Shown piece by piece: positions 29,044 to 48,571 of a stretch of 64,000 bases of DNA. The notes below the pieces were generated by a model. The model had not been told where the DNA came from. It saw nothing but the letters and a program-made list of their open reading frames with translations, and did no database searches. The stretch comes from a virus. A program made the translations under genes and the position numbers. The DNA is taken from positions 24,225 to 88,224 of IMG/VR virus record IMGVR_UViG_3300021961_000050, one strand, 5' to 3'. Every line of letters begins with the position of its first letter. Position 1 is the first letter of the stretch.

Positions 29044-29059
29044 GGTTGAATTTCTAGAA

Positions 29060-29067: not shown

Positions 29068-29072
29068 TATGT

Positions 29073-29387
29073 ATGAACACTGTTGATCAATTAGTTGAAG
29101 AAATTAAGTTAGCCACGGATTATCAAACTAACAAAAAAATTCTTAAAGAAAAGATTCTAACAGATCTGCACATGACTTATAATGGCGGACTCTTTAAGAT
29201 TACTCCTGAGATATTGGCCTTTGTAACTACTTGGCCTGACGATGAATTGTTCTTAGAAGATGTCTACGAAAATCCTATAAAAATTAATAAATTAGAATTT
29301 TTAGATCTATCTCGTCAGCATTATCAACAGACAATGAATACTTGGCATATAGAACATGAAAAAATCAAACGAATTAGAAAGGTCTAG
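29073..29387 (+). CDS. Hypothetical protein (possible tail-fibre assembly-like)
   Basis: 104-aa ORF heading the operon. Confidence 0.5.
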   Translation: MNTVDQLVEEIKLATDYQTNKKILKEKILTDLHMTYNGGLFKITPEILAFVTTWPDDELFLEDVYENPIKINKLEFLDLSRQHYQQTMNTWHIEHEKIKRIRKV

Positions 29388-30141
29388 AGGGGTTCTACTA
29401 TTTGCATCTAATACAGAAACAGTTGACTATGTAAAAATAGCAAATAGATCAGCAAAATTAATAGAACATTTCTTAAACGTACCTGTAACCATAGTATCTA
29501 ATCAAACAACAAGTGCCAATAAAAGATTTTCAATTGACTCAGGCACATTTGAGCAATGGAATAATTTAGATCGTTACATGGCCTATCAGTTAAGTCCCTA
29601 TGATCAAACTTTGTTGTTAGATTCTGACTATCTTGTTCTTGACAAGAATCTGCTGAAACTTTTTGATGTTGTTAATGATTACATCATTCCATTTAATAAC
29701 ATTAACATTGATAATTTGACAATGCCTAAAGACACCATGGGAACACACAGTTTGCCATTTCTTTGGGCTACGATTGTAGCATTTAATAAAACAGACAAAA
29801 CAGAAAAACTATTTGATTTGGTAAAGCGTGTACAAAAGAATTTTAAATATTATACCAAACTTTATAACATTAAAAATACCAATTACAGAAATGACTATGC
29901 CTTCGCCATAGCAGACAATATCATCAACGGATACACACAAGATTGCAGGCATTATCTACCATGGACTATGTTAACCGTGTCAAATAAAATTAAATCAATG
30001 CGAATTGAGGATGGATTAATTAAGATCAAAGAACAAGATAAAGCTCTGGTATCCCCCTTACAAAGCCTTCATATTATGAGCAAACAATGGTTGTTGTCAG
30101 ACGAATGTGAACAATTTATCAATGAGGCCATCAATGGATAG
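29356..30141 (+). CDS. Putative GT-A glycosyltransferase (GT8/mannosyltransferase-like)
   Basis: 'SPYDQTLLLDSD' DxD motif. Confidence 0.65.
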   Translation: MKKSNELERSRGVLLFASNTETVDYVKIANRSAKLIEHFLNVPVTIVSNQTTSANKRFSIDSGTFEQWNNLDRYMAYQLSPYDQTLLLDSDYLVLDKNLLKLFDVVNDYIIPFNNINIDNLTMPKDTMGTHSLPFLWATIVAFNKTDKTEKLFDLVKRVQKNFKYYTKLYNIKNTNYRNDYAFAIADNIINGYTQDCRHYLPWTMLTVSNKIKSMRIEDGLIKIKEQDKALVSPLQSLHIMSKQWLLSDECEQFINEAING

Positions 30142-30952
30142 ATTTAAACAACAACAGGGTTTTCTAACCATTGCACAAAATACAACGGTTGATTATTTAA
30201 ATTTAGCATATCACCAGGCTAAATCAATAAAACAAACACAAAAGATCAATAATTATGCAGTACTAGTTGATCAAAAGACATTTGAACAAGTCACTGACCT
30301 ACATAGAACAGTGTTTGATTATGTTATTCTGATAGAAAATGATCAAGCAGAAAATGATCTTTGGAAACTGCGTAATGAGTGGCAGGTTTTCAATCTCACA
30401 CCATTTAAAGAAACCATTAAATTAGAAAGTGATTTAGTTTTTACAAGATCTGTTGATCATTGGTGGACTGCGTTAAGATTAAAAGATGTTTGTCTCAGTT
30501 ACCAATGTAAGAATTTTCAAGGACAAACAGTACCCAAATCAAGATACAGAAAATTGTTTTATGATAATGATTTACCAGATGTTTATAACGGTATGATGTA
30601 TTTTCGTTATAGTCAAACTGCGGCAGATTTTTTTAGGACTGCCAGAAAGATCTATGAAGAATGGCCCACAGTTACTAAAAATTTATTGAATTGTTCAGAC
30701 AAAGAACCTACCACTGATGTGGTTTATAGTTTAACAGCAAAACTTTTAGGTAAAGAAAATTTTTACGTTCCAAGTTTAGATTTTTTTAATTTTGTACACA
30801 TGAAACCACAAATACAAAATTGGTCAGATCACCAATGTTGGACAGACTATGTGTTAGTTGAACAAGATAATGCCATGTTAAGAATTAATAACACCAATCA
30901 ATACTATCCTGTTCACTATTATGAAAAGGACCTATTTAATGTCCAAAGCTGA
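30134..30952 (+). CDS. Putative GT-A glycosyltransferase, paralog of previous
   Basis: 'TPFKETIKLESD' variant DxD; 'FVHMKP', 'HYYEK'; track start 30107. Confidence 0.6.
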   Translation: MDRFKQQQGFLTIAQNTTVDYLNLAYHQAKSIKQTQKINNYAVLVDQKTFEQVTDLHRTVFDYVILIENDQAENDLWKLRNEWQVFNLTPFKETIKLESDLVFTRSVDHWWTALRLKDVCLSYQCKNFQGQTVPKSRYRKLFYDNDLPDVYNGMMYFRYSQTAADFFRTARKIYEEWPTVTKNLLNCSDKEPTTDVVYSLTAKLLGKENFYVPSLDFFNFVHMKPQIQNWSDHQCWTDYVLVEQDNAMLRINNTNQYYPVHYYEKDLFNVQS

Positions 30953-31304
30953 AGAAGAATTTTTAAAGGCCATGCGGGAATATATTCCGCCATTGGTTAA
31001 ACCTGATGAGTACCGTGCCTATTATGATGAAAATGGTTGGATTATATTCTTTGCGGCTAACCAATTTCCTCCAGAGGGTAATTGGATTAACATTGATAAA
31101 GATCTATATATCACACATAATTGGACTAACCTTAAAGTCATTGACAATGCTATCAAAAAGGTTGAAATTGACACCAGTTTTCGTGTACAATTAATTAAGA
31201 GTGATCATGGATTTAGGACTGTTCAAAATCATGCTGGTTTAATCTTAGAAGAAGACGAGGAATATTCTGATGTAGACTACTATGACATCAGAAAAAACAT
31301 ATAA
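30939..31304 (+). CDS. Hypothetical protein
   Basis: ORF overlapping neighbours in operon; track start 30921. Confidence 0.55.
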   Translation: MSKAEEEFLKAMREYIPPLVKPDEYRAYYDENGWIIFFAANQFPPEGNWINIDKDLYITHNWTNLKVIDNAIKKVEIDTSFRVQLIKSDHGFRTVQNHAGLILEEDEEYSDVDYYDIRKNI

Positions 31305-32197
31305 TGACACAAATCATTGACATCGCAGATTTAGACTGCGTTTATCTCAGTTATGATGAGCCCAAAAAGGAAGAGTTTTGGATTAAAATTCAAAATATGG
31401 TACCTTGGGCAAAACGTGTAGATGGAGTAAAAGGTTCAGATGCCGCACACAAAGCCGCGGCCAATGCCAGTGACACTGATCGTTTTATACTGATAGATGG
31501 TGATAACTTGCCTGACGCTAACTTTTTTAATCTACAGTTAACTTTGGATGATTCTAATAGAGATTCAGTATTTCGTTGGCGAGCAAAAAATGCAATAAAC
31601 GGACTACAATATGGCAATGGAGGATTAAGTTGTTGGACCAAAGAGTTTATCTATAACATGCGTACACATGAAAACACAGATGGTAAGGAAGAAAATGATG
31701 TAGAGTTTTGTTTTTATCCTAACTATTGGGCCATGCACGACTGTTATTCAACTACATACCCCAACCAGACTCCATTCCAAGCATGGCGAGCAGGATTCCG
31801 TGAAGGTGTTAAAATGAGTCTAAACAGAGGACGTAAGCCTACGGTGGAAGAATTTAAACAGCAGGTTCATGCACGTAACTATGATCATTTATGTATTTGG
31901 CAGACAGTAGGGGCAGACGTTGACAATGGATTTTATTCTATCTATGGTGCCAGATTAGGCACACATCTAACCATGTTAGAAGATTGGAATTATCAGTTAG
32001 TACAGGACTTTGATGAGTTAGCTTTGATGTGGCCTACTTTTCAAGATGCCACGCCTGATCATTGTAAGAATCTAGGAGAAAGTCTACGTACCTGTTTGGG
32101 ATTAGACATAGTAGACATGGATCCAGAAGAAAGCAAATTTTTTAAACATCATTACAAAAGTAACTTTCATAATAAAGGTATAATGCTACGTGAGTAA
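31304..32197 (+). CDS. Putative GT-A fold glycosyltransferase
   Basis: 'YLSYDEP', 'AHKAAA...FILIDGD', 'NGLQYGNGG', 'AWRAGFREGVK'. Confidence 0.6.
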   Translation: MTQIIDIADLDCVYLSYDEPKKEEFWIKIQNMVPWAKRVDGVKGSDAAHKAAANASDTDRFILIDGDNLPDANFFNLQLTLDDSNRDSVFRWRAKNAINGLQYGNGGLSCWTKEFIYNMRTHENTDGKEENDVEFCFYPNYWAMHDCYSTTYPNQTPFQAWRAGFREGVKMSLNRGRKPTVEEFKQQVHARNYDHLCIWQTVGADVDNGFYSIYGARLGTHLTMLEDWNYQLVQDFDELALMWPTFQDATPDHCKNLGESLRTCLGLDIVDMDPEESKFFKHHYKSNFHNKGIMLRE

Positions 32198-33035
32198 GCC
32201 TATATTACCTTTTCTTGAAACTATGATTACACAGGTTTGTAATATCAGCTGTCTAGGTTGTACAAACTACAGTGATCTGACACACCAAGGATACGTTAGT
32301 TGGCAACAGGGTAAAGAATGGTTAGAGCCATGGCTAAGCAGGATAGATATTCCTGACTTTGGCATCATGGGAGGTGAGCCTTTGATTAATCCTGAAGTTG
32401 AGCATTGGATCTTAGGTATCAGACAGTTAATGCCTAAGACACAGATAAGATTTACTACTAATGCTTTGTTGTTAGAAAAGAAATGGCATCTAGTAGATCT
32501 AATGTCAGAACTTGGTAATTGTGTACTTAAAATAACAGTGCATGAAAACAATCCTGTGATTGAACAAACTATAGAAAAGATATTTAACAGTTATGATTGG
32601 AAACCTGTTACTGAGTATGGCATTGATAGATATGTCACTGATAAAGATTTTAAGTTTCAAATTAATAGACCAAAGACCTTTATTAAATCTTACAAAAATA
32701 ATTATGCTAACATGATGCCATATTCAAGTGACCCTGTAAAGGCATTTGAAATATGCTGTCAAAAAAATTGCCCTTTACTTTACCAAGGACGTATCTATAA
32801 ATGTAGCACTAGTGGGCTATTGAAGGAAACTTTAGAAAGATTTGGTAATCCAAATTTTGAACAGTGGAAAGATTATGTAACTGATGGTATTGGGTTTGAT
32901 TGTACCAATTCTGAACTAGCAACATTTATAAACAACTTTGAAAAACCTGAGCAGATCTGTAGAATGTGCCCTACTGTAGATGATTCTGCTACTATAGATC
33001 ATTATGCTACAGTAACAAGGGGAAAATATGCTTAG
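32190..33035 (+). CDS. Radical SAM enzyme (C-terminal Cys-rich SPASM-like region)
   Basis: CNISCLGC (CxxxCxxC), GGEP, TTNA; C-terminal 'C..CP...GRIYKC...CRMC'. Confidence 0.9.
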   Translation: MSKPILPFLETMITQVCNISCLGCTNYSDLTHQGYVSWQQGKEWLEPWLSRIDIPDFGIMGGEPLINPEVEHWILGIRQLMPKTQIRFTTNALLLEKKWHLVDLMSELGNCVLKITVHENNPVIEQTIEKIFNSYDWKPVTEYGIDRYVTDKDFKFQINRPKTFIKSYKNNYANMMPYSSDPVKAFEICCQKNCPLLYQGRIYKCSTSGLLKETLERFGNPNFEQWKDYVTDGIGFDCTNSELATFINNFEKPEQICRMCPTVDDSATIDHYATVTRGKYA

Positions 33036-34005
33036 TCTAGCATTAAGAGATAATCTTCCCTGGGATCAAGATTTAGTTTGGACGTATCTTTACCAACAAT
33101 TAGAATCAGATATGCCTATCACAATAGATATTTGTCCTGAGGCTTGTTGTCTAAGATCTGCTGGTGTTTATGATTTGCTTGACAAATTTTGTGTTACTGT
33201 TGGATACAATAAAACCATTACAATTAAAACTGCTAATATGATCGAGTATCATTCAATTTACAAAATAGAACGGAACGCAGGTAGTTGGTATGAACTTCCT
33301 TTACTACAACAATGGTTGAAAGATAATCCAATTATATATACAACTACTCCTTCAAAAATGTTTGGATGCTTTAACAGTAGAAATCACTGGTCAAGACTTT
33401 GGTTGTCAACAATCTTATACAATTACTATAAAGAAAAATCTTTATTAACCTACCACTATGATGGTACCGTTATAAATTTTAACTACGATCTCTATATAGG
33501 TATTGACGATTTGATTAAAAGAGACTGTGAGCAAATTACACAGGCCTACAACTTTTTACAAAACTGTCCGTTGACATTAGATCAGATAAATGAATATCCT
33601 ATACAGCATCCTGCTAATATGTCATTGTTAAAATTTTATCAAGATCTATTTGTTGATATTGTATCTGAAACAAATGTTGCAGGGAATAGTTTTCTAGTTA
33701 CTGAAAAAACCTGGCGTTCAATTATATCTAAAAGACCATTTATTGTGATGTCAAATCAGGGATTCTTACACCATTTAAAAAAATTAGGATTTAAAACATT
33801 TGATTTTTATTGGTCAGAAGAGTATGATCAAAACTCTGATAAAAATAGAATAAAACATATTATTGATTTATTAGATCAACTGTCTAAACTAACATTGGTC
33901 CAAGTTGAAGAAATGTTGAAAGACATGGATGATATTTTAGAACACAATCTATCAGTGTTTAACAGTTTGTCTTTTGGTAGACTCAATGAGATTTTCAATG
34001 GATAG
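33028..34005 (+). CDS. Putative GT-B glycosyltransferase (GT10-like C-terminus)
   Basis: 'IVSETN...FLVTEKTWRSI...PFIV...LGFKTF' motif. Confidence 0.5.
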   Translation: MLSLALRDNLPWDQDLVWTYLYQQLESDMPITIDICPEACCLRSAGVYDLLDKFCVTVGYNKTITIKTANMIEYHSIYKIERNAGSWYELPLLQQWLKDNPIIYTTTPSKMFGCFNSRNHWSRLWLSTILYNYYKEKSLLTYHYDGTVINFNYDLYIGIDDLIKRDCEQITQAYNFLQNCPLTLDQINEYPIQHPANMSLLKFYQDLFVDIVSETNVAGNSFLVTEKTWRSIISKRPFIVMSNQGFLHHLKKLGFKTFDFYWSEEYDQNSDKNRIKHIIDLLDQLSKLTLVQVEEMLKDMDDILEHNLSVFNSLSFGRLNEIFNG

Positions 34006-34744
34006 ACTGTTTACCTTTGGTTGTAGTTTTACAAAATATTGTTGGCCAACTTGGGCTGACATCTTAGCACAATCAGCTGAGCATTATGAAAACTGGGCAA
34101 CTCCTGGTGGAGGCAATCAATACATTTTTAACAGTTTGATAGAATGTCATAAACGAAATAGTCTGACTGCCAACGACACCGTAATTATAATGTGGACCAG
34201 TATCAGTCGTGAAGATAGATATATTAGAGACAAAGGATGGTTAACACCTGGTAGTATCTTCAATCAAACAGACTATGATAAAAATTTTGTAAAAAATCTA
34301 GCAGATCCATATGGTTATTTGATTAGAGATCTAGCAATCATATCAGCTACACGCATGATATTAGATCAAATTGGATGCCAATGGCACTTTTTATCAATGG
34401 TACCTATAGAATATCATGATGACAGTACATATTTTAAGAAAGATCTAAAGATTACAAAAGAAATTAAAGATTTATATCAGATAGAACTTGATCTGATTAA
34501 ACCTAGTGTGTTTGACACAGTGTTTAATGGGGATTGGTCCAGCAGAAAACATCTAAAACCACAGGTTGATGATAATCACCCTACGCCTGGTGAACATTTA
34601 ATTTACTTAAATACAATACTGCCTCAATATAATATTAGTAATGACACAGTTAATTTGGTTAAGTTGAGCGACCAAATTGTATTAGACAATCTGCCATTTG
34701 ATTGGCAGGGTTGGAAATTAAATCAATTAGGAATGAGATTCTAA
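33998..34744 (+). CDS. SGNH/GDSL-like hydrolase or acyltransferase
   Basis: 'FGCSFT' block I, 'GGGN', C-terminal 'DNHP'; track start 33974. Confidence 0.6.
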   Translation: MDRLFTFGCSFTKYCWPTWADILAQSAEHYENWATPGGGNQYIFNSLIECHKRNSLTANDTVIIMWTSISREDRYIRDKGWLTPGSIFNQTDYDKNFVKNLADPYGYLIRDLAIISATRMILDQIGCQWHFLSMVPIEYHDDSTYFKKDLKITKEIKDLYQIELDLIKPSVFDTVFNGDWSSRKHLKPQVDDNHPTPGEHLIYLNTILPQYNISNDTVNLVKLSDQIVLDNLPFDWQGWKLNQLGMRF

Positions 34745-36138
34745 TGAGTGAAAAATCAAAATTTATGGCTTCCGCAGAGGATATGAAAGATCGTTTAGGA
34801 ACGGCTCTCTGTTTGGCTAAATGGCAACAGGTCAGTCTACATCTTACCACAGGCATGACCAACTCATGCTATCATCCACCATTACACGAAATTGATCCTA
34901 GTGTGATTGAAATTAAACCAGCGGCCTTGCATAATACAGAACATAAAAAACAACAGCGTAAAAAAATGTTAGCAGGTGATCGACCCAAGGAGTGTAACTA
35001 CTGCTGGCACATGGAGGATGCTGGACATTTAAGTGATCGTCATTATCGCTCAGGTGAACCATGGGCTTTAGAACACTTTGACTCTATTGTCAATAGTCCA
35101 TGGGACCAAGATGCTACTCCCAGTTATGTAGAAGTTAACTTTAATCATGCCTGTCAAATGGCCTGTAGTTATTGTTCACCACAGTATTCAACAGAATGGG
35201 GTAAAGACATAGAACGCTGGGGTGCTTACCCCACGTCAACACCACATAACGCACCTGAACATTTTCAAGGAAGACGCAAGCCTATACCTAACAGAGAACA
35301 TAATCCCTATGTAGAAGCATTTTGGAAATGGTGGCCTGAATTATACGGATCATTGAAACATTTTCGTATGACAGGTGGCGAGCCCTTAATGGATAAGAAT
35401 ACATACAAAGTTTTTGATTATATTCTAACTTTACCTAAAAAAGATCTGCACGTTGATGTAACATCAAACTTTTCAGTAGAACCTAAACTGTTTAATCAAT
35501 ACATTAACAAAGTCAAAGAACTCTGTACAGATGAAAAGATTGAACACTTTATGCAGTATGTAAGTATAGACACAGGTATACCTAATCATGCTGAATACAT
35601 CAGACACGGACTCCAATGGCAAAGATTTGAAACATATATTCATCAGTACTTAACCAGAGTACCTAATAGAAACAGTTTAACTTTTATTGTTACTCTAAAT
35701 AATTTAAGTATACTAGGTCTACAAAGATTGCTTGAAAATATTTTAGAATATCGTAAACTATACAGTGAAAACTATCAACGCATTTGGTTTGATACTCCAG
35801 TACTACGTACACCAAATTGGCAGAGTCTACAGATATTACCACCAACGTATAGTAAGATATTAGAAAAAACCATTCAATGGATGAAACTTCATCGCTTAGA
35901 AGAAGGATCTAATAATTTTGTTGGATTTAAAGATTATGAAATTCAAAGATTAGAAAGAGATCTTACTTGGATGCAACGTGGTAAAAAACTCACTAAAGAC
36001 TATCTACATAAACAAAGAGCAGACTTCTATAGATTCTTTAATGAATATGACAAACGTAGAAACATTAGTTTTGAAGATACCTTTCCACAAATGAAAGATT
36101 TTTGGCAGGAGTGTAAATGGCATGCAGAAAATTCATGA
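34744..36138 (+). CDS. Radical SAM enzyme with N-terminal Twitch/SPASM-like domain
   Basis: N-terminal 'CLAKW...SCYHP...CNYC', core CQMACSYC, TGGEP; track start 34702. Confidence 0.9.
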   Translation: MSEKSKFMASAEDMKDRLGTALCLAKWQQVSLHLTTGMTNSCYHPPLHEIDPSVIEIKPAALHNTEHKKQQRKKMLAGDRPKECNYCWHMEDAGHLSDRHYRSGEPWALEHFDSIVNSPWDQDATPSYVEVNFNHACQMACSYCSPQYSTEWGKDIERWGAYPTSTPHNAPEHFQGRRKPIPNREHNPYVEAFWKWWPELYGSLKHFRMTGGEPLMDKNTYKVFDYILTLPKKDLHVDVTSNFSVEPKLFNQYINKVKELCTDEKIEHFMQYVSIDTGIPNHAEYIRHGLQWQRFETYIHQYLTRVPNRNSLTFIVTLNNLSILGLQRLLENILEYRKLYSENYQRIWFDTPVLRTPNWQSLQILPPTYSKILEKTIQWMKLHRLEEGSNNFVGFKDYEIQRLERDLTWMQRGKKLTKDYLHKQRADFYRFFNEYDKRRNISFEDTFPQMKDFWQECKWHAENS

Positions 36139-36277
36139 CAATACCTGCCCAGCATTTTTTAATGACGCTACAATAGATCCTTCTGGTTCTTATAGTCCTT
36201 GTACTGCTTTAGGCGGTGGAGCATTTAAATTTCCTAATAAAACATTTAAAGAATTTAGTAAACTTTTAGATATTTAA
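36122..36277 (+). pseudogene. Truncated Twitch-domain radical SAM remnant (51 aa)
   Basis: MQKIHDNTCPAFFNDATIDPSGSYSPCTAL...*; matches the C..(P)W....I.PDG...PC start of neighbouring paralogs but stops before any CxxxCxxC. Confidence 0.55.
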
Positions 36278-36281
36278 GAGA

Positions 36282-40127: not shown

Positions 40128-41505
40128 TGACAAATATCTAATAACCACTCGTCGTGATAGTGAAATGAGTGTGAGCATATATAATACTGTTTATGACCCT
40201 AAAACAATGCCTAAACCTGTTGGGTTATGTATGGCTCCTTGGACTCATACATATCTAAACCCACAAACTGAGCGTAGAATGTGTTGCGCCAGCCGTGAAT
40301 CTGCACAGAACTTTGAACAGTACATAGATACAAAAGCAGGAACTGGTAAGTATATTCCCATCACACTAGAAGAGCATTGGAATGGTGAACACATGAAGAG
40401 TGTACGCAGACGCATGATGCGTGGCGAACGACTGCCTGAATGTGAAGTATGCAATGATAAATTACTAAACACTGACGTTTACAGAAGTTATTTTGAAAGA
40501 CTCTTTGGTGATAAGTATTTACGTATATGGGACACTACAGATGATACAGGCTATACCACAATGAAGCCTGTAAGTTGGGACTACCGTTTCAGCAATCTTT
40601 GTAATTTTAAGTGTCGCATGTGTGGTGATATGTTGTCAAGTGCTTGGGAGTCAGAGCAGAGGCAACATAACATGATAGACTGGTCAAATCCTAAAAATAA
40701 TTGGATGCTTCCAGAAATAAAAGAACAGATAGAACTGTTCCAGTCATCTCAAATTGAAAAAGAGTTCTCAGACGCCGTTGAGTCTCATCAAGTTGAAGAA
40801 GTATATTGGGTTGGTGGTGAACCTCTAATGTACGATCAACATTGGAGATACATGAAACGTATCGTTGACCTAGGAGATGGCAAAAATGTTTACGCTAGAT
40901 ACAACACAAATCTTAGTCGCATCAACTATCGCGGTATCAATCTCTATAATGATATTCTATCTGGGCTACGTGATTGGCAAATCTGTGCAAGCCTTGATGG
41001 TACAGGACAAGTTGGAGAGTATATCCGAACAGGTCTTAGCTATCAAACGTGGCTTGAGAACTTTAAAGCAGGTCTTGCACGATCTACACACCGCCGTCAA
41101 ATGAGAATAGACTTCACACTTACCCTACCAGGTATGTTTGAAGTTAAAAATATAGATAATCTAGCAGTGATGCTAGATGTGGACTTGTTAAGTAAGGTGG
41201 TGTTTAGTTTTTCATCAGACATCATCTTAAGTCCACTTGCACTTCCAAAAAAACTATTACATGCTAAGATTGATGATCTATTATCTAATACACTAACCAA
41301 TCGTTCTCTCATTGACACATTAGAACAATTAAAATCTAGACCAACTTTTGAAGAACAATGGCCCAATGAGTACAAGTATGGTCTTGCAAAAGGTAAGGCT
41401 CGTGTGTTACAATTAGAGAGTATACGTAAAGATAAATTTACCTTACGTGATATATTGTCACATGATAAAGATATATTAGAATGGTGGGATTCAATTGGAA
41501 ATTAA
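40120..41505 (+). CDS. Radical SAM enzyme with N-terminal Twitch/SPASM-like domain
   Basis: 'CMAPW...MCC...CEVC', CNFKCRMC, VGGEP. Confidence 0.9.
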   Translation: MSDDKYLITTRRDSEMSVSIYNTVYDPKTMPKPVGLCMAPWTHTYLNPQTERRMCCASRESAQNFEQYIDTKAGTGKYIPITLEEHWNGEHMKSVRRRMMRGERLPECEVCNDKLLNTDVYRSYFERLFGDKYLRIWDTTDDTGYTTMKPVSWDYRFSNLCNFKCRMCGDMLSSAWESEQRQHNMIDWSNPKNNWMLPEIKEQIELFQSSQIEKEFSDAVESHQVEEVYWVGGEPLMYDQHWRYMKRIVDLGDGKNVYARYNTNLSRINYRGINLYNDILSGLRDWQICASLDGTGQVGEYIRTGLSYQTWLENFKAGLARSTHRRQMRIDFTLTLPGMFEVKNIDNLAVMLDVDLLSKVVFSFSSDIILSPLALPKKLLHAKIDDLLSNTLTNRSLIDTLEQLKSRPTFEEQWPNEYKYGLAKGKARVLQLESIRKDKFTLRDILSHDKDILEWWDSIGN

Positions 41506-42553
41506 AGTTACTCTACGTAATCCGTTGGACAAACAAGATTTTTTGGATTATTATATAGTTCCAAATAATAGTCAACTGGCCTGTGATTGGTTTGGTGCTC
41601 TACAGCAACTATTAAAAAATGGTAATCTATTAGAAAAGAACTTTTGTTTTTTAGGATTTCCTAACTCAGCAAGAACAGTTGACTATCTATGTAAAGAACT
41701 TAATTGGGCAGTTGATCAAATAAATTCTGCATTTGCTGATTATAATATTTTAGAAATTTTTACCAGTGATGCAGTGTCTAATAATCAAAACTTGCTTAAC
41801 CATTTACATAATCATTTTGAACAGTTACAAGGTACGGTAGAAAATTTAAGCAGTTACTATAAACGTGCTGACTACGATACCAAATATGCTATCAGACAAT
41901 TAAACAATCTTTGTCATGAACTAGAAAGCCTATTACTAAGTCAACGCAAACAACGTTCAGATCCAGAATGGGTTAGACCTAGTCAGATAACCACGTTCTT
42001 ACACGCACAGAGATACGAATTAACAGATGAGCATCGTCAGGGATTTGTTGCCAATGGATATGATCGTAAGTTTAGTCATGTCTATATGCACTGGACGCAG
42101 ATAGGAAAGACCTTGTTTGAAGTGTTCCGTGATGAACATGCACCTACACTAACAGACACAGTCTGTGAAGCAATTACTCATTTGCGTTATTATTCAGGTG
42201 AGTTTGATGTAGAATGGGGTAACACTGTGACCTATGGTGGTAACAATCCATGGCACAATTTAGAACAGGATAAATTTATCCAATGGCTAATAGATAATGG
42301 ATTTGATCCTAAGGATACAAAATTAAGTTTAGGATATTTGCCTCTTGGGCATATAGATTTGATGAAATCATTTGGCACTGACGATCCTATCAGAGTAAGA
42401 GAAATATTGGGTCGTTATCTTGATATCTATAGTATAGAGGCGGGTGAATGCTCTAATGTATTTGACTATTGTTGGGCTGACAGTGATCATAAACAGCGTC
42501 AAATTGAATCAATGAAACCTGGATATGATTACAGTAGCAAGGAGAATGTATGA
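41495..42553 (+). CDS. Hypothetical protein, His-rich motifs (possible metalloprotein)
   Basis: 352-aa ORF (TTG start) in operon; 'LNHLHNHFE', 'LNNLCHELE'. Confidence 0.6.
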   Translation: MEIKVTLRNPLDKQDFLDYYIVPNNSQLACDWFGALQQLLKNGNLLEKNFCFLGFPNSARTVDYLCKELNWAVDQINSAFADYNILEIFTSDAVSNNQNLLNHLHNHFEQLQGTVENLSSYYKRADYDTKYAIRQLNNLCHELESLLLSQRKQRSDPEWVRPSQITTFLHAQRYELTDEHRQGFVANGYDRKFSHVYMHWTQIGKTLFEVFRDEHAPTLTDTVCEAITHLRYYSGEFDVEWGNTVTYGGNNPWHNLEQDKFIQWLIDNGFDPKDTKLSLGYLPLGHIDLMKSFGTDDPIRVREILGRYLDIYSIEAGECSNVFDYCWADSDHKQRQIESMKPGYDYSSKENV

Positions 42554-42651
42554 AGTGGTTAAAGAAAATAATTGAAAGAATTAAATTAGAAATCAGATAC
42601 AGAAAACGTCTGAGAGAACTTAAAAAGAAAGATCCATTTATCTATAAATGA
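42550..42651 (+). CDS. 33-aa basic peptide ending KDPFIYK
   Basis: AAGGAG RBS, ATGA overlaps at both ends; MKWLKKIIERIKLEIRYRKRLRELKKKDPFIYK. Confidence 0.7.
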   Translation: MKWLKKIIERIKLEIRYRKRLRELKKKDPFIYK

Positions 42652-43298
42652 AAATACTTACACTAGGCGATAGTTTTACCAAAGGCAGTGAATTAGCAGA
42701 TCCTGTTAGTTCTGCTTGGCCATCTGTGCTGGCTAATATTGGAGAGCACAATGTGACCAATGAAGCGGAATACGGTGGTAGTAATGATATGATGTTTCGT
42801 AAAGCCATTGAACTAACAGCAGTGGATCATTACGATTTAATCATCATTGCTTGGACTGAAGCACATAGAATGGAAGTCTATCTTAATGAACCTAGAGACA
42901 TGGAATATAGATCATACACTGTAGGTCCGTTGAGTATAAATCATAACTGGGGTAATCTAAAATGGACCAAAGAATATTATGCTGAACATTATAATGAAGA
43001 ATATTTTTTAAGAAAGTGGCTAACACAGGTTATAGCTCTACAGGGATATTTTAAAAGTAGAGACCAAAAATATATTTTTTTAAATGCTTTTGGAAACCAA
43101 CAGGCTTTACCAAAATATAATTTAACAACTAAACAATCTGTTGATTCTAAATATTTTTTAGGTTGGCCCAATGAAGGAATAGTAGAATGGGTTTATGGAT
43201 TACCCAAAGGCAAATATGGGCATCCATTAGAACAGGCACACATATTAATTGCAGAGAAAATCAATGAAAGTATTAGGAATTTCAGCTGGGTTTCATGA
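42648..43298 (+). CDS. SGNH/GDSL-like hydrolase or acyltransferase
   Basis: 'LGDSFT', 'GGSN', C-terminal 'GHPLEQAH'. Confidence 0.7.
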   Translation: MKILTLGDSFTKGSELADPVSSAWPSVLANIGEHNVTNEAEYGGSNDMMFRKAIELTAVDHYDLIIIAWTEAHRMEVYLNEPRDMEYRSYTVGPLSINHNWGNLKWTKEYYAEHYNEEYFLRKWLTQVIALQGYFKSRDQKYIFLNAFGNQQALPKYNLTTKQSVDSKYFLGWPNEGIVEWVYGLPKGKYGHPLEQAHILIAEKINESIRNFSWVS

Positions 43299-44748
43299 TG
43301 CTGGAATAGCATTCATTGACAATGGTAACATTGTCTATGCTGGACACAGTGAAAGATACAGCAAGATCAAACATGATAGCGAGTTAAATCCGCAAATTCT
43401 TGCTGACTGTATCAGTAGATGTGGGATTCCTGATGTTATTGCCTACTATGAGAAACCATGGATTAAAAAGACCAGACAGTTATATGCAGGTCAATGGAAT
43501 GATCTTTGGCACGGTTGGTCAGTTCGCAACATGATTAACAAAGTTGATCCAACTAACGAATTACATCGTGTACCAATTAAAACATATAATCATCACAAAT
43601 CACATGCGGCCGCTGGCTTCCAAACTTCTAAATTTAGAGATGCTACGGTGGTTGTGATAGATGCCATTGGTGAGTGGGACACTATGTCTGTATGGAACGC
43701 ATACTATGATCGTAATGGTCGTGCCTGTTATGAAAAGTTATGGAGCCAACGCTATCCACATTCGATAGGTTTGATGTATTCAGCATTTACTAAAGAGGTT
43801 GGGCTCAGACCTTTAGATGAAGAATACATTCTAATGGGTATGGCCGCCTATGGTAATGATCTAGGTACTGCTTCGTTTAAACATGTTCTAATTGATGATG
43901 AAAATGCCCTAACATTCAGACATAATCTACATATTGGTTTACCTAACAGTGGAGAATATGGAGAACCGTTTGATATAGCCGCCAGTGCCCAAAAACTGAC
44001 AGAATATCTGATCAACTCAGTGGTATCCTACGCAAAGAAAAACGGTCGCAGTAATAATTTAGTCTACATGGGTGGAGTTGCTCTTAACTGTTTGGCTAAT
44101 AGGGACCTAGGAAGATTCTTTGATAATATTTGGATCATGCCTAATCCAGGCGATTGTGGTAGCTCACTGGGTGCGGCCGCACTGGCGTGGGGACATAAAG
44201 TAAATTGGCAAGATGCTTATCTAGGTTATGATATCAAACAGCCTTATCCAATAACAGAACTATTAAGTGAACTAGTGGAAAGGAAAATAGTAGGAGTGGC
44301 CAACGGTCCTGCAGAGTTTGGCCCTAGGGCATTAGGCAATAGATCATTACTAGCAGATCCAAGAGGACCAGAGATAAAAGATCAGGTAAATGAAATTAAA
44401 CAGAGACAAAAGTTCCGTCCATTTGCTCCTGTTATCTTAGAAGAATATGTTGATGAATATTTTTCCATGCCCAATGGTTGGGAAACTAGTCCTTATATGC
44501 AGACCACTGCTATTTGTAAAAATCTAAAAGAATTTCCTGCTATTGTACATGCAGATGGTACTAGCCGTGTACAAACAGTAGGTCCAGAATGCAGAAGTGG
44601 AATTAGACAATTACTAGAACAATGGTTTATGTGGACTGGCTGTCCTATGTTGTTAAATACTAGTCTAAACATTCGCGGTCAACCAATGGTCAATGACAGA
44701 CAAGATGCGGAAAGATTTGAAAAATTATATGGAATAAGGGTATTATGA
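43264..44748 (+). CDS. Carbamoyltransferase (NodU/CmcH/TobZ family)
   Basis: 'LGISAGFHD', 'HHKSHAA', 'VIDAIGE', 'GGVALNC', 'EFGPRALGNRS', 'RPFAP', 'LLNTSLN'; track start 43249. Confidence 0.95.
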   Translation: MKVLGISAGFHDAGIAFIDNGNIVYAGHSERYSKIKHDSELNPQILADCISRCGIPDVIAYYEKPWIKKTRQLYAGQWNDLWHGWSVRNMINKVDPTNELHRVPIKTYNHHKSHAAAGFQTSKFRDATVVVIDAIGEWDTMSVWNAYYDRNGRACYEKLWSQRYPHSIGLMYSAFTKEVGLRPLDEEYILMGMAAYGNDLGTASFKHVLIDDENALTFRHNLHIGLPNSGEYGEPFDIAASAQKLTEYLINSVVSYAKKNGRSNNLVYMGGVALNCLANRDLGRFFDNIWIMPNPGDCGSSLGAAALAWGHKVNWQDAYLGYDIKQPYPITELLSELVERKIVGVANGPAEFGPRALGNRSLLADPRGPEIKDQVNEIKQRQKFRPFAPVILEEYVDEYFSMPNGWETSPYMQTTAICKNLKEFPAIVHADGTSRVQTVGPECRSGIRQLLEQWFMWTGCPMLLNTSLNIRGQPMVNDRQDAERFEKLYGIRVL

Positions 44749-45209
44749 AAATATTAGTTATGGGATTACCAGGGTCAGGAAAATCAACTCTGTCAGAAAA
44801 ATTACTCAACGAAATTGGTAAAACACAAACTGTAGATTGGATCAATGCTGACGACCTTAGAGAGAAAAACAATGATTGGGACTTTAGTGAAGAAGGTAGA
44901 AAACGTCAAGCACGTAGAATGAGAGATTTAGCAGACGAAGGCACAAGAAATCATATGGTCTGTATTGCTGATTTTGTTTGTCCTACTAAAGAATTGCGGA
45001 ACATATACAATGCTGATTTTGTCATTTGGATGGATACTATCAAGGAAGGTCGTTTTGAAGATACTAATCGTATATTTGAACCACCCACAGTAGATGAATA
45101 TGATGTTAAAATATCATCATTTGAAGAAGCTGATCGTTGGTCAACCACTGCCGCTGATTTGATTGACATACTATTAACTTCTGATCCGTCGGAATGGACA
45201 GGTGGCTAG
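44745..45209 (+). CDS. cysC: Adenylyl-sulfate (APS) kinase-like P-loop kinase
   Basis: 'GLPGSGKST', 'NADDLR', 'DFSEEGRKRQA', 'FEPP'. Confidence 0.7.
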   Translation: MKILVMGLPGSGKSTLSEKLLNEIGKTQTVDWINADDLREKNNDWDFSEEGRKRQARRMRDLADEGTRNHMVCIADFVCPTKELRNIYNADFVIWMDTIKEGRFEDTNRIFEPPTVDEYDVKISSFEEADRWSTTAADLIDILLTSDPSEWTGG

Positions 45210-46535
45210 ATGTACGACATCTTTATAATGGACATGGGCGGACATGACGCTAATGTTATAGAACTACAGTCCAAATTTCCACATGCTAAAGTGGTTAGAT
45301 ACTATGATACTCATTTAACAACTATACGACGCTGTGTGGCACGGTCCAGAACTCCTTTTGTTTGGATTATATCAAGTTGTTGCGACTATTCAAAATTTGA
45401 TTTTGATTATAAGGCGTCACCCTGGGAAAGTTATCAGATACACTGCTGGTCCAGTGGAGACCAAAAATTTGGTGATACATTTTTGATCAACTGTTTTGAG
45501 TTTAACAAACAAAAAGATTCAATTGAATTACTAGAATGGTACAAGGATATTAATTGGCATGAAGATGGTGTACCTAGACTAGCATGGCCAAAAGTCATTT
45601 ATACATCAGACAATCAAACAGACATTATCAACGCAACCAAATTTGATTCCTTATACATACAATTTCTTAGAGATATAGACCAAACCACTAAATTTAATCC
45701 CTCTCTTTGGAATAAACGTGCTGTATACACCTTTAACAGAGCAAACAGTGTATCACTAGTACCACGCGATATTTCAGGCGAAATAGGCAGTCAAATCTAC
45801 GATTATCCTTATGTAATCAAGCAAAAAGACCAGTTTTTAGACGATAAAATGCTGGATATAGTCTACATCAGCAATGGTGAACCTGACGCAGAACGGTGGT
45901 ATAAACACCTCTGTGACTGCGTACAACGCCCTGTGTTGCGAGTTCAGAATGTCAACGGACGTAGACAAGCATATCAAGAAGCCGCACGTGTAAGCACCAC
46001 TGATTGGTTTTTTGCTGTGTTTGCTAAACTAGAAGTCCATGCAGAATTTGATTGGACCTGGCAACCAGATTATCTACAAGAACCTAAACATTACATATTT
46101 CATAGTCGTAATCCAGTTAACGGATTAGAATATGGTCACATGGGCATAATTGCTTATAATAAGAATTTAGTTTTAGATACCAATGACAGTGGTCTTGACT
46201 TTACTCTGAGTCGTTCTCATGCCGTGGTACCTGTATTAAGTGCTATTGCTCATTACAACACCACACCAGAACTAACTTGGCGTACTGCATTCCGTGAGTG
46301 TGTTAAACTAAAACATGACATTGATACTACAGGCAATATTGAAAGTGTGATTAGGTTAGACACCTGGAAAACAGAAACCTATCCAGATCAACCTAATGGG
46401 GATTGGTCAATTAAAGGTGCGTTGGATGCTGAGGAATACTACAAACAGGCCAACGGGGACTATGACAAATTAATGTTAACCTTTGAATGGGCGTGGCTAA
46501 AAGAGTACTATGCTATGAAAGGCTATACTGAATAA
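45210..46535 (+). CDS. Putative GT-A fold protein with duplicated domains; C-terminal half paralogous to 31304 gene
   Basis: 'YISNGEP', 'NGLEYGH', 'WRTAFRECVK'. Confidence 0.55.
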   Translation: MYDIFIMDMGGHDANVIELQSKFPHAKVVRYYDTHLTTIRRCVARSRTPFVWIISSCCDYSKFDFDYKASPWESYQIHCWSSGDQKFGDTFLINCFEFNKQKDSIELLEWYKDINWHEDGVPRLAWPKVIYTSDNQTDIINATKFDSLYIQFLRDIDQTTKFNPSLWNKRAVYTFNRANSVSLVPRDISGEIGSQIYDYPYVIKQKDQFLDDKMLDIVYISNGEPDAERWYKHLCDCVQRPVLRVQNVNGRRQAYQEAARVSTTDWFFAVFAKLEVHAEFDWTWQPDYLQEPKHYIFHSRNPVNGLEYGHMGIIAYNKNLVLDTNDSGLDFTLSRSHAVVPVLSAIAHYNTTPELTWRTAFRECVKLKHDIDTTGNIESVIRLDTWKTETYPDQPNGDWSIKGALDAEEYYKQANGDYDKLMLTFEWAWLKEYYAMKGYTE

Positions 46536-47643
46536 CACTAACAATTTCCTCAACTTCTTCATCTGTTAGTTCAGGATAAATTGGTAAACTCAAAGCGGTT
46601 TTACAAAACTCATCAGCACCCTCTAATATAAAATTCTTGTCTGCTAGAAGTTTACTCATAAAACTAACTCCTTCAGTTGCCAATGGTTGATGATAATGTA
46701 TCCTTGATTCAATTCCAACATTTTCTAATTCTTTAACAATCTGAGAACGATCATGATGATGAATTACATACTTACTCCAACTATGATCAACCAGTTCGTG
46801 TAATTCACTACCAGGAGTTACTACATAGTCTCTTAATTCGTTATTGTAATACTCTGCTATTTCTTTTCTTCTCTGTTGCCATTGGTCAAAATATTTTAAT
46901 TTAACTAACATCTGTCCACAGTCTACTTCGCTCATACGACTATTAGTTCCTGAATAAACAAAATTGTTATTTTTTCCATTGTTTCTAAAATCTTTAACTA
47001 GTTCTGCCCAATCCTGGTCGTCTGTTAATAACATACCACCACTGCCATAATTGTTTAAATTTTTTGTAGGATCAAAACTGAATATACTAATGTCGCCTAG
47101 ATTACCACTTGGTTGACCATTCCAACTACTACCAAAACTTTGTGCGGCGTCTTCAATGATATAATTACTTTTTTCTTTAAATAAAGTTCCAAACGATTTT
47201 ATCTGCTCATAGTTAGCACAATTACCAAAAAGATTTACATACATCAAAGCATCAATATCTTCAGTTGGTACTGAAATAGATTTAAGATCTATTATCCCAG
47301 TAACAGAATCTACATCACAAAAGATAGGTTCTAAATCAGATTCAATGACAGAATTTACAGTGGCAATATAACTCACAGCAGGAATTAGCACAGTCCTAAT
47401 ACGAGAATTGGTCATCTTTAAACATCTTAAAGCAAATATTAGAGCCTGTGTTCCACTGTTAACAGAAATAGCATGACGTCTATTAGTTCGCCTGGCCATT
47501 GTTAATTCAAATGTTTCTGTGTAATGACCGTCCAGCACTTGTCCGCTGACTAATATGTCATTGGTAACTTCAAGTATCTCTGCCTGTATACTCTTATACT
47601 GTCGATCAATTCCAAAGAACGGAATTTTGTAGGAACCACTCAT
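46513..47643 (-). CDS. DegT/DnrJ/EryC1/StrS PLP-dependent sugar aminotransferase
   Basis: 'NSGTQAL', 'IEDAAQSFG', 'FSFDPTKNL...GGM', 'LSLPIYP'. Confidence 0.92.
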   Translation of the reverse strand: MSGSYKIPFFGIDRQYKSIQAEILEVTNDILVSGQVLDGHYTETFELTMARRTNRRHAISVNSGTQALIFALRCLKMTNSRIRTVLIPAVSYIATVNSVIESDLEPIFCDVDSVTGIIDLKSISVPTEDIDALMYVNLFGNCANYEQIKSFGTLFKEKSNYIIEDAAQSFGSSWNGQPSGNLGDISIFSFDPTKNLNNYGSGGMLLTDDQDWAELVKDFRNNGKNNNFVYSGTNSRMSEVDCGQMLVKLKYFDQWQQRRKEIAEYYNNELRDYVVTPGSELHELVDHSWSKYVIHHHDRSQIVKELENVGIESRIHYHQPLATEGVSFMSKLLADKNFILEGADEFCKTALSLPIYPELTDEEVEEIVSVIQYSLS

Positions 47644-48571
47644 GATATCTTTTAAAACCTTCTTCTATGTCAATAGTTGGATTGTATCCTAAATCTGATC
47701 TTGCACGATCAATGTTTAATCTTCCCCTACTAGGAAATGTTTGATCTCTATCTGTTAGTTTAACTGTGCCTTGTCCAACCAGGTCTACAATTAAATTAGC
47801 GGCCATTTCTAAATTATATTCTGTTGTATTACTTCTAGTGATGTTATAGCAGGTATTAGCACAGGACTTTATAGCCGCAAGTACAATGCCCTGGGCTGTA
47901 TCTTCTACGTGTGTAAAGTCTAATATTTCTTTTGGACCCTTTACCACAAGTTCTTTTCCTAATAATGCCTGTGTAAAAAATTTACTTACCACGCGATCGT
48001 TGACGTCCCATTCACCATAAACAGCACTAGGCCTAACAATGACGTGATCAAATCCAGCACGTTTAGAATAGTCAGCAACTAAATGTTCACCCATTAGTTT
48101 CATGATAGCATACTGTCCTGTAGGACGACACGTTTCTGTTTCATCTGTGTTACTGTCAAAATCTCCATAGACCATAGAGCTTGATACGTAGACAAACTTT
48201 TCAACATTATTACTGCGTGTGGCTTCTAATAGATTTACAAGACCATTGCACATAACATCACTGGCCACCAATGGCATTTGACTCACTACTTTTTGTCTTG
48301 GAAAACTGGCTAGGTGAATAACACAGTCTGGACGATAGTGATGAAATATGCGATCAATGTATCTTGATTCTCTGATGTCCATCACTGATGTTGTTGTGTG
48401 TTTGCCTAGTCTATGTTGTCTCTGTTTTATTAGATAGTCTAATTCTAATTTTGGAACAAAGCCATAGTCTGTTATTGAGTCAATGATTTTTACGTTGTGA
48501 CCTTGATAGTCAAGTAATCTTGCCACGTTATGACCAATGAATCCTAATCCACCTGTAACTAATATTTTCAT
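47606..48571 (-). CDS. NAD-dependent nucleotide-sugar epimerase/dehydratase (extended SDR)
   Basis: 'ILVTGGLGFIG', 'SSSMVYG', YxxxK 'YAIMK'; track start 48592. Confidence 0.92.
   Translation of the reverse strand: MKILVTGGLGFIGHNVARLLDYQGHNVKIIDSITDYGFVPKLELDYLIKQRQHRLGKHTTTSVMDIRESRYIDRIFHHYRPDCVIHLASFPRQKVVSQMPLVASDVMCNGLVNLLEATRSNNVEKFVYVSSSMVYGDFDSNTDETETCRPTGQYAIMKLMGEHLVADYSKRAGFDHVIVRPSAVYGEWDVNDRVVSKFFTQALLGKELVVKGPKEILDFTHVEDTAQGIVLAAIKSCANTCYNITRSNTTEYNLEMAANLIVDLVGQGTVKLTDRDQTFPSRGRLNIDRARSDLGYNPTIDIEEGFKRYHEWFLQNSVLWN

Follow-up and report, generated by a model that had tools for sequence, protein, structure and literature searches.

What would a phage build with a tightly packed run of sugar-type enzymes and radical S-adenosylmethionine (rSAM) enzymes placed directly behind its tail fiber genes? 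We addressed this question for the virus of IMG/VR record IMGVR_UViG_3300021961_000050, in a window of 64,000 nucleotides (nt) that spans bases 24225 to 88224 of one 88,224-bp contig (G+C content, ∼35%); unless stated otherwise, positions are those of the window. The island in question comprises 18 plus-strand open reading frames (ORFs) of at least 100 amino acids (aa) at 29073-46535, which abut or overlap, followed by two convergent minus-strand ORFs that extend to 48592, in agreement with the ∼20 packed ORFs that a first-pass annotation had placed behind the tail fiber genes. Gaps among the ORFs occur only at 28987-29073, 36138-36282, and 42553-42648. Most likely, the island is virus-encoded glycan machinery, the new elements of which are an array of five rSAM paralogs, the partner protein encoded at 41495-42553, and the pairing of a 33-aa peptide with a carbamoyltransferase. 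More specifically, and tentatively, since we give it somewhat less than even chances, we favor a cytoplasmic system of soluble enzymes in which a sugar or short glycan is put together and then heavily edited, with a virion protein of the adjacent fiber set as the likeliest acceptor.

The case for a coherent system starts from conservation. The rSAM enzyme encoded at 37625-38941 has more than 7,600 homologs at an E value of ≤0.001 (8,000 candidates scored), the best 120 of which are all at least 69% identical to it. A scan of viral contigs with the single protein gave no match, and an alignment of 25 homologs was used in its place; with this query, 594 of 600 IMG/VR pattern stretches encoded a relative. 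From the at least 594 contigs holding such a relative, 80 viral loci were fetched via the rSAM, and conservation counts out of 82 refer to these loci plus two phage records, searched by tblastn with 28 window proteins. The island core, whose genes might have proved not to be co-conserved in relatives, is colinear in all 80 fetched loci, and one order recurs in essentially all of them: fiber gene, 28046, 29073, 29356, 30107, 31304, rSAMs 1 to 5, 41495, (42648), 43249, (44745), (45210), each gene being named by its start position. A gene order that returns in 80 of 80 viral loci is more than chance, and in most of these loci the island also adjoins the fiber genes. The view of the first-pass annotation that this is a dedicated sugar-enzyme island behind the fibers is thus upheld: the genes are co-conserved, and we know of no characterized pathway of such composition.

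Transferase-like proteins and the rSAM array

The glycosyltransferase (GT)-like proteins of the island are the following:

29356-30141 and 30107-30952, plus strand: two paralogous GT8/glycogenin-like proteins, each in 67 of 82 loci
31304-32197, plus strand: core GT-A-fold protein, in 75 of 82 loci (median identity, 63%)
45210-46535, plus strand: 441-aa protein whose C-terminal half is paralogous to 31304-32197 (hhalign, 99.8%; E = 8.5e-29), in 60 of 82 loci at an E value of ≤1e-5
33028-34005, plus strand: variable protein, possibly GT10-like, in 51 of 82 loci

Family alignments of these genes were built from the orthologs in related loci. The profiles of the first two families identify them as paralogs (hhalign, 99.6%), and the 30107 profile matches glycogenin-1 (E = 3.5e-5) over 111 N-terminal positions only. 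The 29356 profile found neither glycogenin nor any other significant match among PDB profiles and is homologous to the 30107 family all the same. Each family retains acidic positions, namely, an invariant DxD (D89 and D91) in the 29356 family and an invariant D109 that follows a nearly invariant E107 (ExD) in the 30107 family; Pfam (PF01501 included) gave no match for either at an E value of ≤0.01. The third protein, 31304-32197, is the best conserved non-rSAM gene product of the island, with D65-G66-D67 invariant across the family. Its PDB-profile search returned nothing significant. The AlphaFold2 model (predicted local distance difference test [pLDDT], 87.4) displays a GT-A/nucleotide-diphospho-sugar-transferase fold over residues 3 to 155, with VIA Z scores of 9.3 for B4GALNT1, 8.8 for STIV A197, 8.2 for SunS, and 7.3 for PBCV-1 A64R (root mean square deviation, 3.1 to 3.9 over 132 to 140 residues) and RmlT as the top Foldseek match (E = 5.2e-4). 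The same-fold nucleotidyltransferases IspD and MobA score alike (Z, 8.0 to 8.3), and the transferase chemistry of 31304-32197 is hence putative. For 33028-34005, which in relatives is often multicopy and lies downstream on the opposite strand, the nearest Pfam-bearing clusters in the atlas are Glyco_transf_10 (score, 0.78 to 0.79, under the 0.9 line of the tool), with no match to Pfam (PF00852) or to PDB profiles. Of the approximately five GT-like proteins first proposed, two form a glycogenin-like pair and two a GT-A-fold pair, 33028 is a weak GT10 lead, and all five lack a family match (zero in Pfam, PHROG, or NCBIfam).

The rSAM part of the island consists of an array, its partner, a short accessory enzyme, and one small ORF:

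34702-36138, 36282-37628, 37625-38941, 38928-40127, and 40120-41505, plus strand: five paralogous N-terminal-twitch (N_Twi) rSAM enzymes (NF033640; E = 1e-83 to 2e-120)
41495-42553, plus strand: core protein of 352 aa, in 62 of 82 loci, in which positions of His, Glu, and Cys are invariant
32190-33035, plus strand: short accessory rSAM enzyme without the N-terminal twitch domain (PF04055, 41.9 bits; CX3CX2C at residue 17), in 5 of 82 loci
36122-36277, plus strand: 51-aa ORF in the 143-nt gap between rSAMs 1 and 2, probably outside the system

All six rSAM enzymes are intact, as first annotated, in that each carries CX3CX2C; in the N_Twi enzymes, the motif occurs once per protein, at residues 151, 140, 156, 123, and 161 (34702, 36282, 37625, 38928, and 40120, respectively). 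Against the full NF033640 model (cutoff, 170 bits), these five score 305.7, 297.9, 402.4, 349.8, and 281.3 bits in the same order, and the short enzyme is a nonmember (22.2 bits). PF13186 places a SPASM domain at the N terminus of 37625 (residues 42 to 105), 38928 (residues 8 to 77), and 40120 (residues 37 to 112), and 34702 and 36282 align to the same N-terminal NF033640 model positions without a separate SPASM match. What the five proteins share with NF033640 N_Twi_rSAM is the full-model score and a layout in which a Cys-rich twitch/SPASM-like domain at the N terminus precedes the CX3CX2C core. NF033640 is a named subfamily; what distinguishes the island is a fixed array of five diverged paralogs with a dedicated partner protein. 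Within the accessible part of the literature on “twitch domain-containing radical SAM,” we found no paper on the function of NF033640.

The array appears to be old. Paralogs within the window are only 21 to 32% identical, whereas orthologs across loci are 50 to 79% identical and keep the same order of positions. In a tree of 81 sequences, every paralog group forms one side of a branch (Shimodaira-Hasegawa-like approximate likelihood ratio test [SH-aLRT] values of 99, 62, 99, 92, and 91), and the 28 bacterial rSAM homologs included fall in five places. Judged from their sequences, the five paralogs are anciently diverged.

PDB-profile and atlas searches were blank for the partner protein, 41495-42553, the family of which has 699 representatives at an E value of ≤1e-3. 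One of these, P0256 (754 aa), is a natural fusion of a 41495-type domain (residues 19 to 318) with an N_Twi rSAM enzyme (residues 332 to 748), which links 41495-42553 functionally to the rSAM array. Seven further representatives of 712 to 775 aa have the 41495-type domain after an N-terminal part of ∼400 aa, for which a PDB search gave no match.

A search for peptide substrates of the array yielded none: no precursor peptide is tied to the rSAM enzymes, the sole conserved small ORF tracks the carbamoyltransferase (see below), and neither an RRE/PqqD-like recognition domain nor a leader-bearing precursor was detected in family and profile scans. An Hxs-like rSAM kit acting on Cys-His tails was also considered and rejected, as a six-frame translation of the 88,224-bp contig contains no (CHxS)x2 run. 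Likewise, the 51-aa ORF at 36122-36277 is not a recognizable remnant of a lost rSAM twitch domain, given that it matches no rSAM profile and has no tblastn match in the 82 loci. Several relatives carry an additional rSAM gene at this position.

Carbamoyltransferase, companion peptide, and other tailoring enzymes

Two genes form a unit of their own:

43249-44748, plus strand: TobZ/NodU/CmcH-type carbamoyltransferase, in 61 of 82 loci (median identity, 59%)
42550-42651, plus strand: basic 33-aa ORF, MKWLKKIIERIKLEIRYRKRLRELKKKDPFIYK, joined to both neighboring genes by ATGA overlaps

The assignment of the larger gene to the NodU/CmcH type was correct, with both Pfam domains above their cutoffs (PF16861, Carbam_trans_C, 166.2 bits versus 27; PF02543, Carbam_trans_N, 128.9 bits versus 24). 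With 136.9 bits against a cutoff of 1,000, it does not qualify as a NodU equivalog, and it has in addition a weak Sua5/YrdC match (E = 4.2e-4). The smaller gene was absent from the first-pass annotation and is added here; it occupies what had looked like a gap between the 41495 and 42648 genes. We found it in 67 of the 80 viral loci, most of the remaining loci ending before the site, and a pattern scan located it in at least 120 viral contigs. Its per-codon-position entropies (0.59, 0.39, and 1.17) indicate purifying selection on a protein, the final 17 residues of which are almost invariant. All 57 fully aligned copies are 33 residues long, with longer or shorter matches in more distant loci. 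No Pfam or NCBIfam family covers the ORF, its motif DPFIYK is absent from the literature searched, and, to our knowledge, no counterpart has been described.

The peptide and the carbamoyltransferase travel together. Among 62 loci with room for both, 56 contain the pair, 4 contain neither, 2 contain the peptide only, and none contains the carbamoyltransferase only. When peptide loci with downstream room are considered, 52 of 56 have the carbamoyltransferase within the next three mapped same-strand genes. It is this coupling to a near-invariant 33-aa ORF ahead of it that sets the enzyme apart from TobZ, NodU, and CmcH, with which it shares both Pfam domains. Conversely, no rSAM or 41495 gene is mapped in 18 of the 79 peptide loci with upstream room, and a profile rescan of 18 loci that show few or no island genes left 10 without any island family. 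Peptide and carbamoyltransferase thus appear, from these distributions, to be a separable cassette that occurs outside such islands too, which qualifies the earlier placement of the enzyme among the island genes: it is a member in 61 of 82 loci but belongs to a peptide-plus-enzyme unit found elsewhere as well. Because of its linkage to the carbamoyltransferase and its occurrence without rSAM genes, the peptide belongs to the carbamoyltransferase and is not an rSAM substrate, and its interpretation as a ribosomally synthesized and posttranslationally modified peptide was rejected on the same grounds. The peptide may serve the enzyme as a small subunit, as its acceptor, or as a regulatory leader. 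With respect to the last of these, we considered whether UGA (RF2) stop specificity might betray a TnaC-like arrest peptide. The stop codon is TGA at 114 of 139 sites, but 107 of the 139 are AAATGA start/stop overlaps; the prevalence of TGA is thus explained by these overlaps (translational coupling), and the arrest idea is unsupported.

Further tailoring enzymes vary more among the loci:

42648-43298, plus strand: DUF6071 protein, an SGNH-like esterase or acyltransferase (PF19547, 45.2 bits; cutoff, 27), in 24 of 82 loci
33974-34744, plus strand: accessory SGNH-like protein (block I, GCSFT; block V, DDNHP), in 4 of 82 loci
44745-45209, plus strand: P-loop kinase resembling adenosine 5′-phosphosulfate (APS) kinase, 154 aa, in 15 of 82 loci
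46513-47643, minus strand: DegT/DnrJ/EryC1 aminotransferase (PF01041, 271.4 bits, model positions 2 to 359 of 360), in 14 of 82 loci
47606-48592, minus strand: short-chain dehydrogenase/reductase (SDR) of the nucleoside diphosphate-sugar 4,6-dehydratase/epimerase type (PF01370, 146.4 bits), in 13 of 82 loci

Both of the SGNH proteins first reported can be recognized as SGNH-like. The 42648 protein belongs to DUF6071 and has a GDSFT motif at residues 7 to 11, and its Lipase_GDSL_2 score (17.6 bits) remains under the cutoff of 32.9; the 33974 protein matches nothing in Pfam or NCBIfam scans, retains the two blocks listed above, and is 31% identical to the 42648 protein over 83 aa (E = 1.9e-7). 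The kinase was described as CysC-like, which holds only in part: it passes the Pfam APS_kinase family (PF01583, 42.2 bits; cutoff, 21.1; model positions 5 to 91 of 152), the likeness lying in residues 1 to 87, but remains below the threshold of the CysC equivalog TIGR00455 (34.4 bits; cutoff, 138.7). As the scanned cluster ORFs include this small P-loop kinase and no sulfotransferase or ATP sulfurylase, sulfation was rejected, and with it the “sulfo” sugar of the first-pass annotation. The best NCBIfam models for the two minus-strand proteins both stay under their cutoffs (DegT protein, PseC, 179.2 bits versus 423.5; SDR, dTDP-glucose 4,6-dehydratase, 136 bits versus 365). The DegT and SDR genes are accessory, as are those for the kinase, the short rSAM enzyme, and the SGNH-like 33974 protein, and the cluster can hence not be said to converge on the first two.

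Proposed product and acceptor of the island

The relatives of TobZ, NodU, DesI/PseC, and RmlB are families that act on sugars or sugar-like small molecules. Together, the GT8-like and GT-A pairs, the carbamoyltransferase, the DegT and SDR proteins, and the DUF6071/SGNH proteins point to the building and decorating of a sugar or glycan. No protein of the region exceeds 1.6 in Kyte-Doolittle hydrophobicity (19-residue windows; maximum, 1.49), meaning that there is no predicted membrane helix, and all island proteins look soluble. With no hydrophobic stretch in any protein, assembly would be cytoplasmic, as in known virion glycosylation. For the acceptor, the genes immediately upstream come into question:

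25136-26524 and 26567-28033, plus strand: two tail-fiber-like proteins (PHROG virion and tail-fiber families; Ser plus Thr, 24 to 25%)
28046-28987, plus strand: 313-aa Ser/Thr/Gly-rich protein (Ser plus Thr, 27%), the final gene ahead of the island promoter
28988-29016, plus strand: predicted sigma-70-like promoter, TTGACA-17-TATAAT (12 of 12 consensus positions), in the gap between 28046-28987 and 29073-29387

The two fiber genes have matches in 44 and 49 of 82 loci, respectively, and are often co-conserved with the island; the second ends in an intramolecular-chaperone autoproteolysis domain (PF11962, Peptidase_G2 IMC; E = 1.3e-5; 25.2 bits versus a cutoff of 25). The 28046-28987 gene, which has a match in 53 of 82 loci, immediately upstream of the island, found no match in Pfam, NCBIfam, PHROG, or PDB-profile searches; its product is a candidate fiber tip or glycan acceptor. 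We favor a virion acceptor because the island has no membrane, flippase, or lipid-carrier component and keeps its position by the fiber genes.

In the mechanism that we envisage, the two glycogenin-like and two GT-A-fold transferases, possibly with the GT10-like protein, would attach and extend sugars. The five N_Twi rSAM enzymes, working with the 41495-42553 protein, would then each introduce a different C-H-activating edit, candidates being oxidation, deamination, decarboxylation, epimerization, and C-C bond formation, comparable to the reactions of DesII, BlsE, and BtrN on sugars. Decoration with carbamoyl, acyl, and phosphate groups, or their removal, would fall to the carbamoyltransferase (together with the 33-aa peptide), the SGNH-like proteins, and the P-loop kinase, and in this particular phage, DegT and SDR may supply an amino-deoxy sugar. 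We infer each of these chemical steps, that the rSAM enzymes act on sugars, and what the acceptor is. A more detailed version, which we regard as quite doubtful, joins a radical editor of glycans on the fiber protein to a separate two-part unit of peptide and carbamoyltransferase. Here, the glycogenin-like enzymes would prime a glycan on a tyrosine, serine, or threonine of the fiber protein and the five N_Twi rSAM enzymes, docked via 41495-42553, would rewrite it in place, while the peptide would be an obligatory small subunit or acceptor or else a nascent-chain sensor gating translation of the enzyme. In this version, the fibers would bear sugars that no known pathway makes. If the fibers are indeed decorated, as in the favored reading, the island would be relevant to host recognition or defense evasion by abundant aquatic giant phages. 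Either way, the five-paralog N_Twi array represents a pool of unexplored C-H-activating chemistry on sugars (or proteins) among roughly a dozen core proteins whose functions are so far predicted only, and the peptide-carbamoyltransferase pair is a small two-gene unit that is directly testable.

Sugars as rSAM substrates are suggested by likeness to enzymes of known function. BtrN, BlsE, and DesII act on sugars or a cyclitol. The twitch part of an island rSAM enzyme aligns to BtrN (profile E = 0.0018), and the best matches of an island rSAM model are BlsE in Foldseek (E = 8.6e-5) and DesII (Z, 10.1) and BlsE (Z, 9.8) in VIA. The resemblance has bounds: identity is 12 to 19%, and the auxiliary-cluster domain is C-terminal in BtrN, DesII, and BlsE but N-terminal in the island enzymes (residues 42 to 105 in 37625).

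Several findings weigh against the favored reading. The peptide-modifying enzymes SuiB (9.8), SkfB (9.8), EpeE (9.4), and anSME (9.1) score within one Z unit of DesII, and the rSAM model reaches a pLDDT of only 69.5; with sugar- and peptide-acting enzymes tied in this way, the rSAM fold does not decide the substrate. None of the GT-like proteins reaches a Pfam or NCBIfam family, the glycogenin match is confined to its 111 positions, and GT-A Z scores of 7 to 9 are in the middling range of the tool. No sugar-1-phosphate nucleotidyltransferase was found in the cluster. In a Bacteriovoracaceae metagenome-assembled genome (MAG) (UBA6144; L091:6040-18036), eight N_Twi rSAM genes lie beside those for L21, Obg, and RsfS with no GT-like partner, and in viral locus L229 (4991-5029), the peptide-carbamoyltransferase pair, with no other gene of the island nearby, is flanked by genes for a Toprim-like primase and a DnaB-like helicase. 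The conserved promoter also separates the island from the fiber genes. This predicted element, defined by its match to the consensus, has counterparts with at least 10 of 12 positions in the same gap of 25 of 42 relatives' loci, compared to 25 of 900 random 100-nt windows, and the island is therefore probably a transcription unit of its own and not simply part of the fiber operon, so that adjacency may reflect inherited gene order instead of functional coupling. Finally, in known virion glycosylation systems the glycan is bound to a structural protein, whereas for the phage lineage described here, the chemistry, the glycan, and the acceptor are all predictions from genes.

These known systems nevertheless offer the closest parallels to the favored reading. 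The glycosylation of capsids and tail tubes in mycobacteriophages (Freeman et al. 2023, PMC10527164) and the fibril or capsid glycan clusters of giant viruses (PMC10117803 and PMC9614988) combine soluble GTs and sugar enzymes near structural genes, as here, and the GT-A fold of the 31304 model resembles those of PBCV-1 A64R and Mimivirus R699 and R655 (Z, 6.9 to 7.6). An rSAM array, a carbamoyltransferase cassette, and a 41495-type protein were not seen in the available portions of these three accounts. Elsewhere, the accessible parts of the literature record 12 rSAM genes in one marine T4-like genome (Nishimura et al., PMC5332604) and describe the “moraphages” (2025), with four core glycosyltransferase orthogroups and, in the portions available, no mention of radical SAM (PMC12619734). 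We found no account of a five-paralog N_Twi array, a 41495 partner, or a peptide-carbamoyltransferase pair in the article texts searched.

Among the alternatives, the one that survives best, although we consider it unlikely, is remodeling of the host envelope: the transferases would work at the cytoplasmic face on lipid-linked precursors of host capsule, O-chain, or lipopolysaccharide (LPS) core, whose sugars the rSAM and tailoring enzymes would alter, and the changed surface would keep out superinfecting phages or prevent the binding of progeny to debris. If true, this would make the island relevant to superinfection exclusion. GT8 is a family of LPS-core glycosyltransferases, GT8 enzymes of the LPS core work without a dedicated flippase, and a sigma-70-like promoter fits expression by the host RNA polymerase independent of the late virion genes. 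Moreover, pelagimyophages carry GT8 genes and radical SAM cassettes in a fiber-side “host recognition cluster,” for which modification of the host O-chain has been proposed (Zaragoza-Solas et al. 2020, PMC7029224). That proposal is, as far as the accessible text goes, an inference without experiment, and the cluster it concerns differs from ours: in pelagimyophages and cyanomyophages, it is a nonsyntenic island of T4-like phages, whereas here a strictly colinear core occurs in a jumbo-phage lineage with a baseplate ∼35% like those of Atu_ph07 and 121Q, the likeness to the pelagimyophage cluster being one of description. In hydrophobicity and Pfam scans, the island lacks membrane-anchored proteins as well as a flippase, a polymerase, and a lipid-carrier transferase, and its position beside the fibers, kept in most of the 80 loci, also argues against the host envelope.

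Quite unlikely, in our view, is a role in protein maturation, in which the five rSAM enzymes would modify a structural protein (28046-28987 or the fibers), possibly by cross-linking, epimerization, or oxidation to formylglycine on side chains or backbone, before the transferases glycosylate the same protein. Most characterized SPASM/twitch rSAM enzymes act on peptides, glycogenin-type enzymes glycosylate proteins, a co-conserved candidate substrate (28046-28987, 53 of 82 loci) lies directly upstream, and CteB joins SuiB, SkfB, EpeE, and anSME among the peptide-acting enzymes tied with the sugar enzymes in fold searches. Set against this are the failure to detect a leader-bearing precursor, an RRE/PqqD-like domain, or Cys-His tails; the fact that the one invariant peptide tracks the carbamoyltransferase and is found in rSAM-free loci as well (18 of 79 with upstream room, 10 of the 18 rescanned); and the bacterial array of the same rSAM enzymes beside housekeeping genes, with no fiber-like gene in 21 kb.

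Least likely of all is a soluble product or nucleic acid modification, that is, a diffusible small molecule (aminoglycoside- or nucleoside-like), a pool of unusual nucleotide-sugars, or phage DNA carrying a glycan or a carbamoyl group: although BtrN, BlsE, DesII, and TobZ all come from antibiotic-type pathways, the carbamoyltransferase fold is kin to t6A enzymes (in keeping with the weak Sua5/YrdC match), the L229 pair lies among replication-type genes as described above, thymidylate synthase (ThyA) and dihydrofolate reductase (DHFR) genes flank the island here, and DNA-hypermodifying phage glycosyltransferases are in print (Pyle et al. 2024, as cited in the accessible part of PMC12619734), the ThyA/DHFR adjacency is limited to 3 of 82 loci and DHFR beside ThyA suggests ordinary dTMP synthesis, family scans detected no hydroxymethylase or DNA-glycosyltransferase, neither an exporter nor a resistance gene is present, and four to five transferase-fold proteins would exceed the usual need of a small-molecule pathway. 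DNA as the target, in particular, finds no support.

Genomic neighborhood, relatives, and habitat

The remaining features of the region are the following:

9388-22935, plus strand: one 4515-aa ORF between the baseplate wedge gene and the fiber-like genes
29073-29387, plus strand: conserved small protein of 104 aa, the first island gene, in 52 of 82 loci
30921-31304, plus strand: accessory protein of 127 aa, in 15 of 82 loci, its only match being phrog_36370 (unknown function; E = 1.8e-5)
51739-53004, minus strand: 421-aa protein downstream of ThyA and DHFR (PHROG 1314, annotated as HNH endonuclease; E = 3.5e-109)

By its gene content, the source virus, an uncultured marine phage, is a large myovirus of a jumbo-phage lineage. 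Baseplate hub and wedge proteins are encoded upstream of the island, and the wedge protein (5990-9370) is 33 to 36% identical to those of Agrobacterium phage Atu_ph07, Escherichia phage 121Q, and their relatives. The 4515-aa ORF that follows presumably encodes a giant fiber or baseplate-attached protein. Family and PDB-profile searches gave no match for the first island gene product, 29073-29387. On the other side, the ThyA and DHFR genes lie 3′ of the island on the minus strand.

Cultured phages rarely carry the system. The 31304 family is found among them only in Ralstonia phage RsoM2USA (39.6% identity; two copies), the sole isolate with a reduced version of the island, which there follows a giant structural ORF. 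This version comprises 29073-, 29356-, and 30107-type genes, the two 31304-like copies, and a single N_Twi rSAM gene. A tblastn search with rSAM 37625 returned 13 matching records, with no pelagiphage or cyanophage isolate among them; distant rSAM arrays of 22 to 25% identity occur in Vibrio phages such as K566. In bacteria, homologs of 32 to 43% identity were found in Bacteriovoracaceae/Bdellovibrionales, Bacteroidota, and one Synechococcus, none with the GT-like partners of the island, and among cellular organisms, the N_Twi family is found mainly in predatory bacteria and Bacteroidota. One bacterial rSAM locus (L149) adjoins a GT2 and an ATP-grasp enzyme. GTDB matches above 50% identity are whole phage islands, the 33-aa ORF included, in MAGs assigned to Legionellales (L083) and Haliscomenobacter (L087); these are probably misbinned phage contigs or, possibly, a hint at hosts.

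The phage collection contains no isolate of this lineage and no near-identical DNA. Such DNA does occur in marine, estuary, and lagoon metagenomes, where five runs from at least four studies hold at least half of the sampled words, and run X1 matches without differences and may be the sample of origin. One salt marsh metatranscriptome contains contigs 90 to 95% alike on rSAMs 2 and 5 only; these are contigs of relatives in which DNA carryover is possible, and they are no proof of expression. In run X4, from a lagoon, a close strain covers 29001-48600 on long contigs with ∼1% difference at a word depth of ∼400, a depth which suggests that the phage or a near relative had bloomed in the sample.

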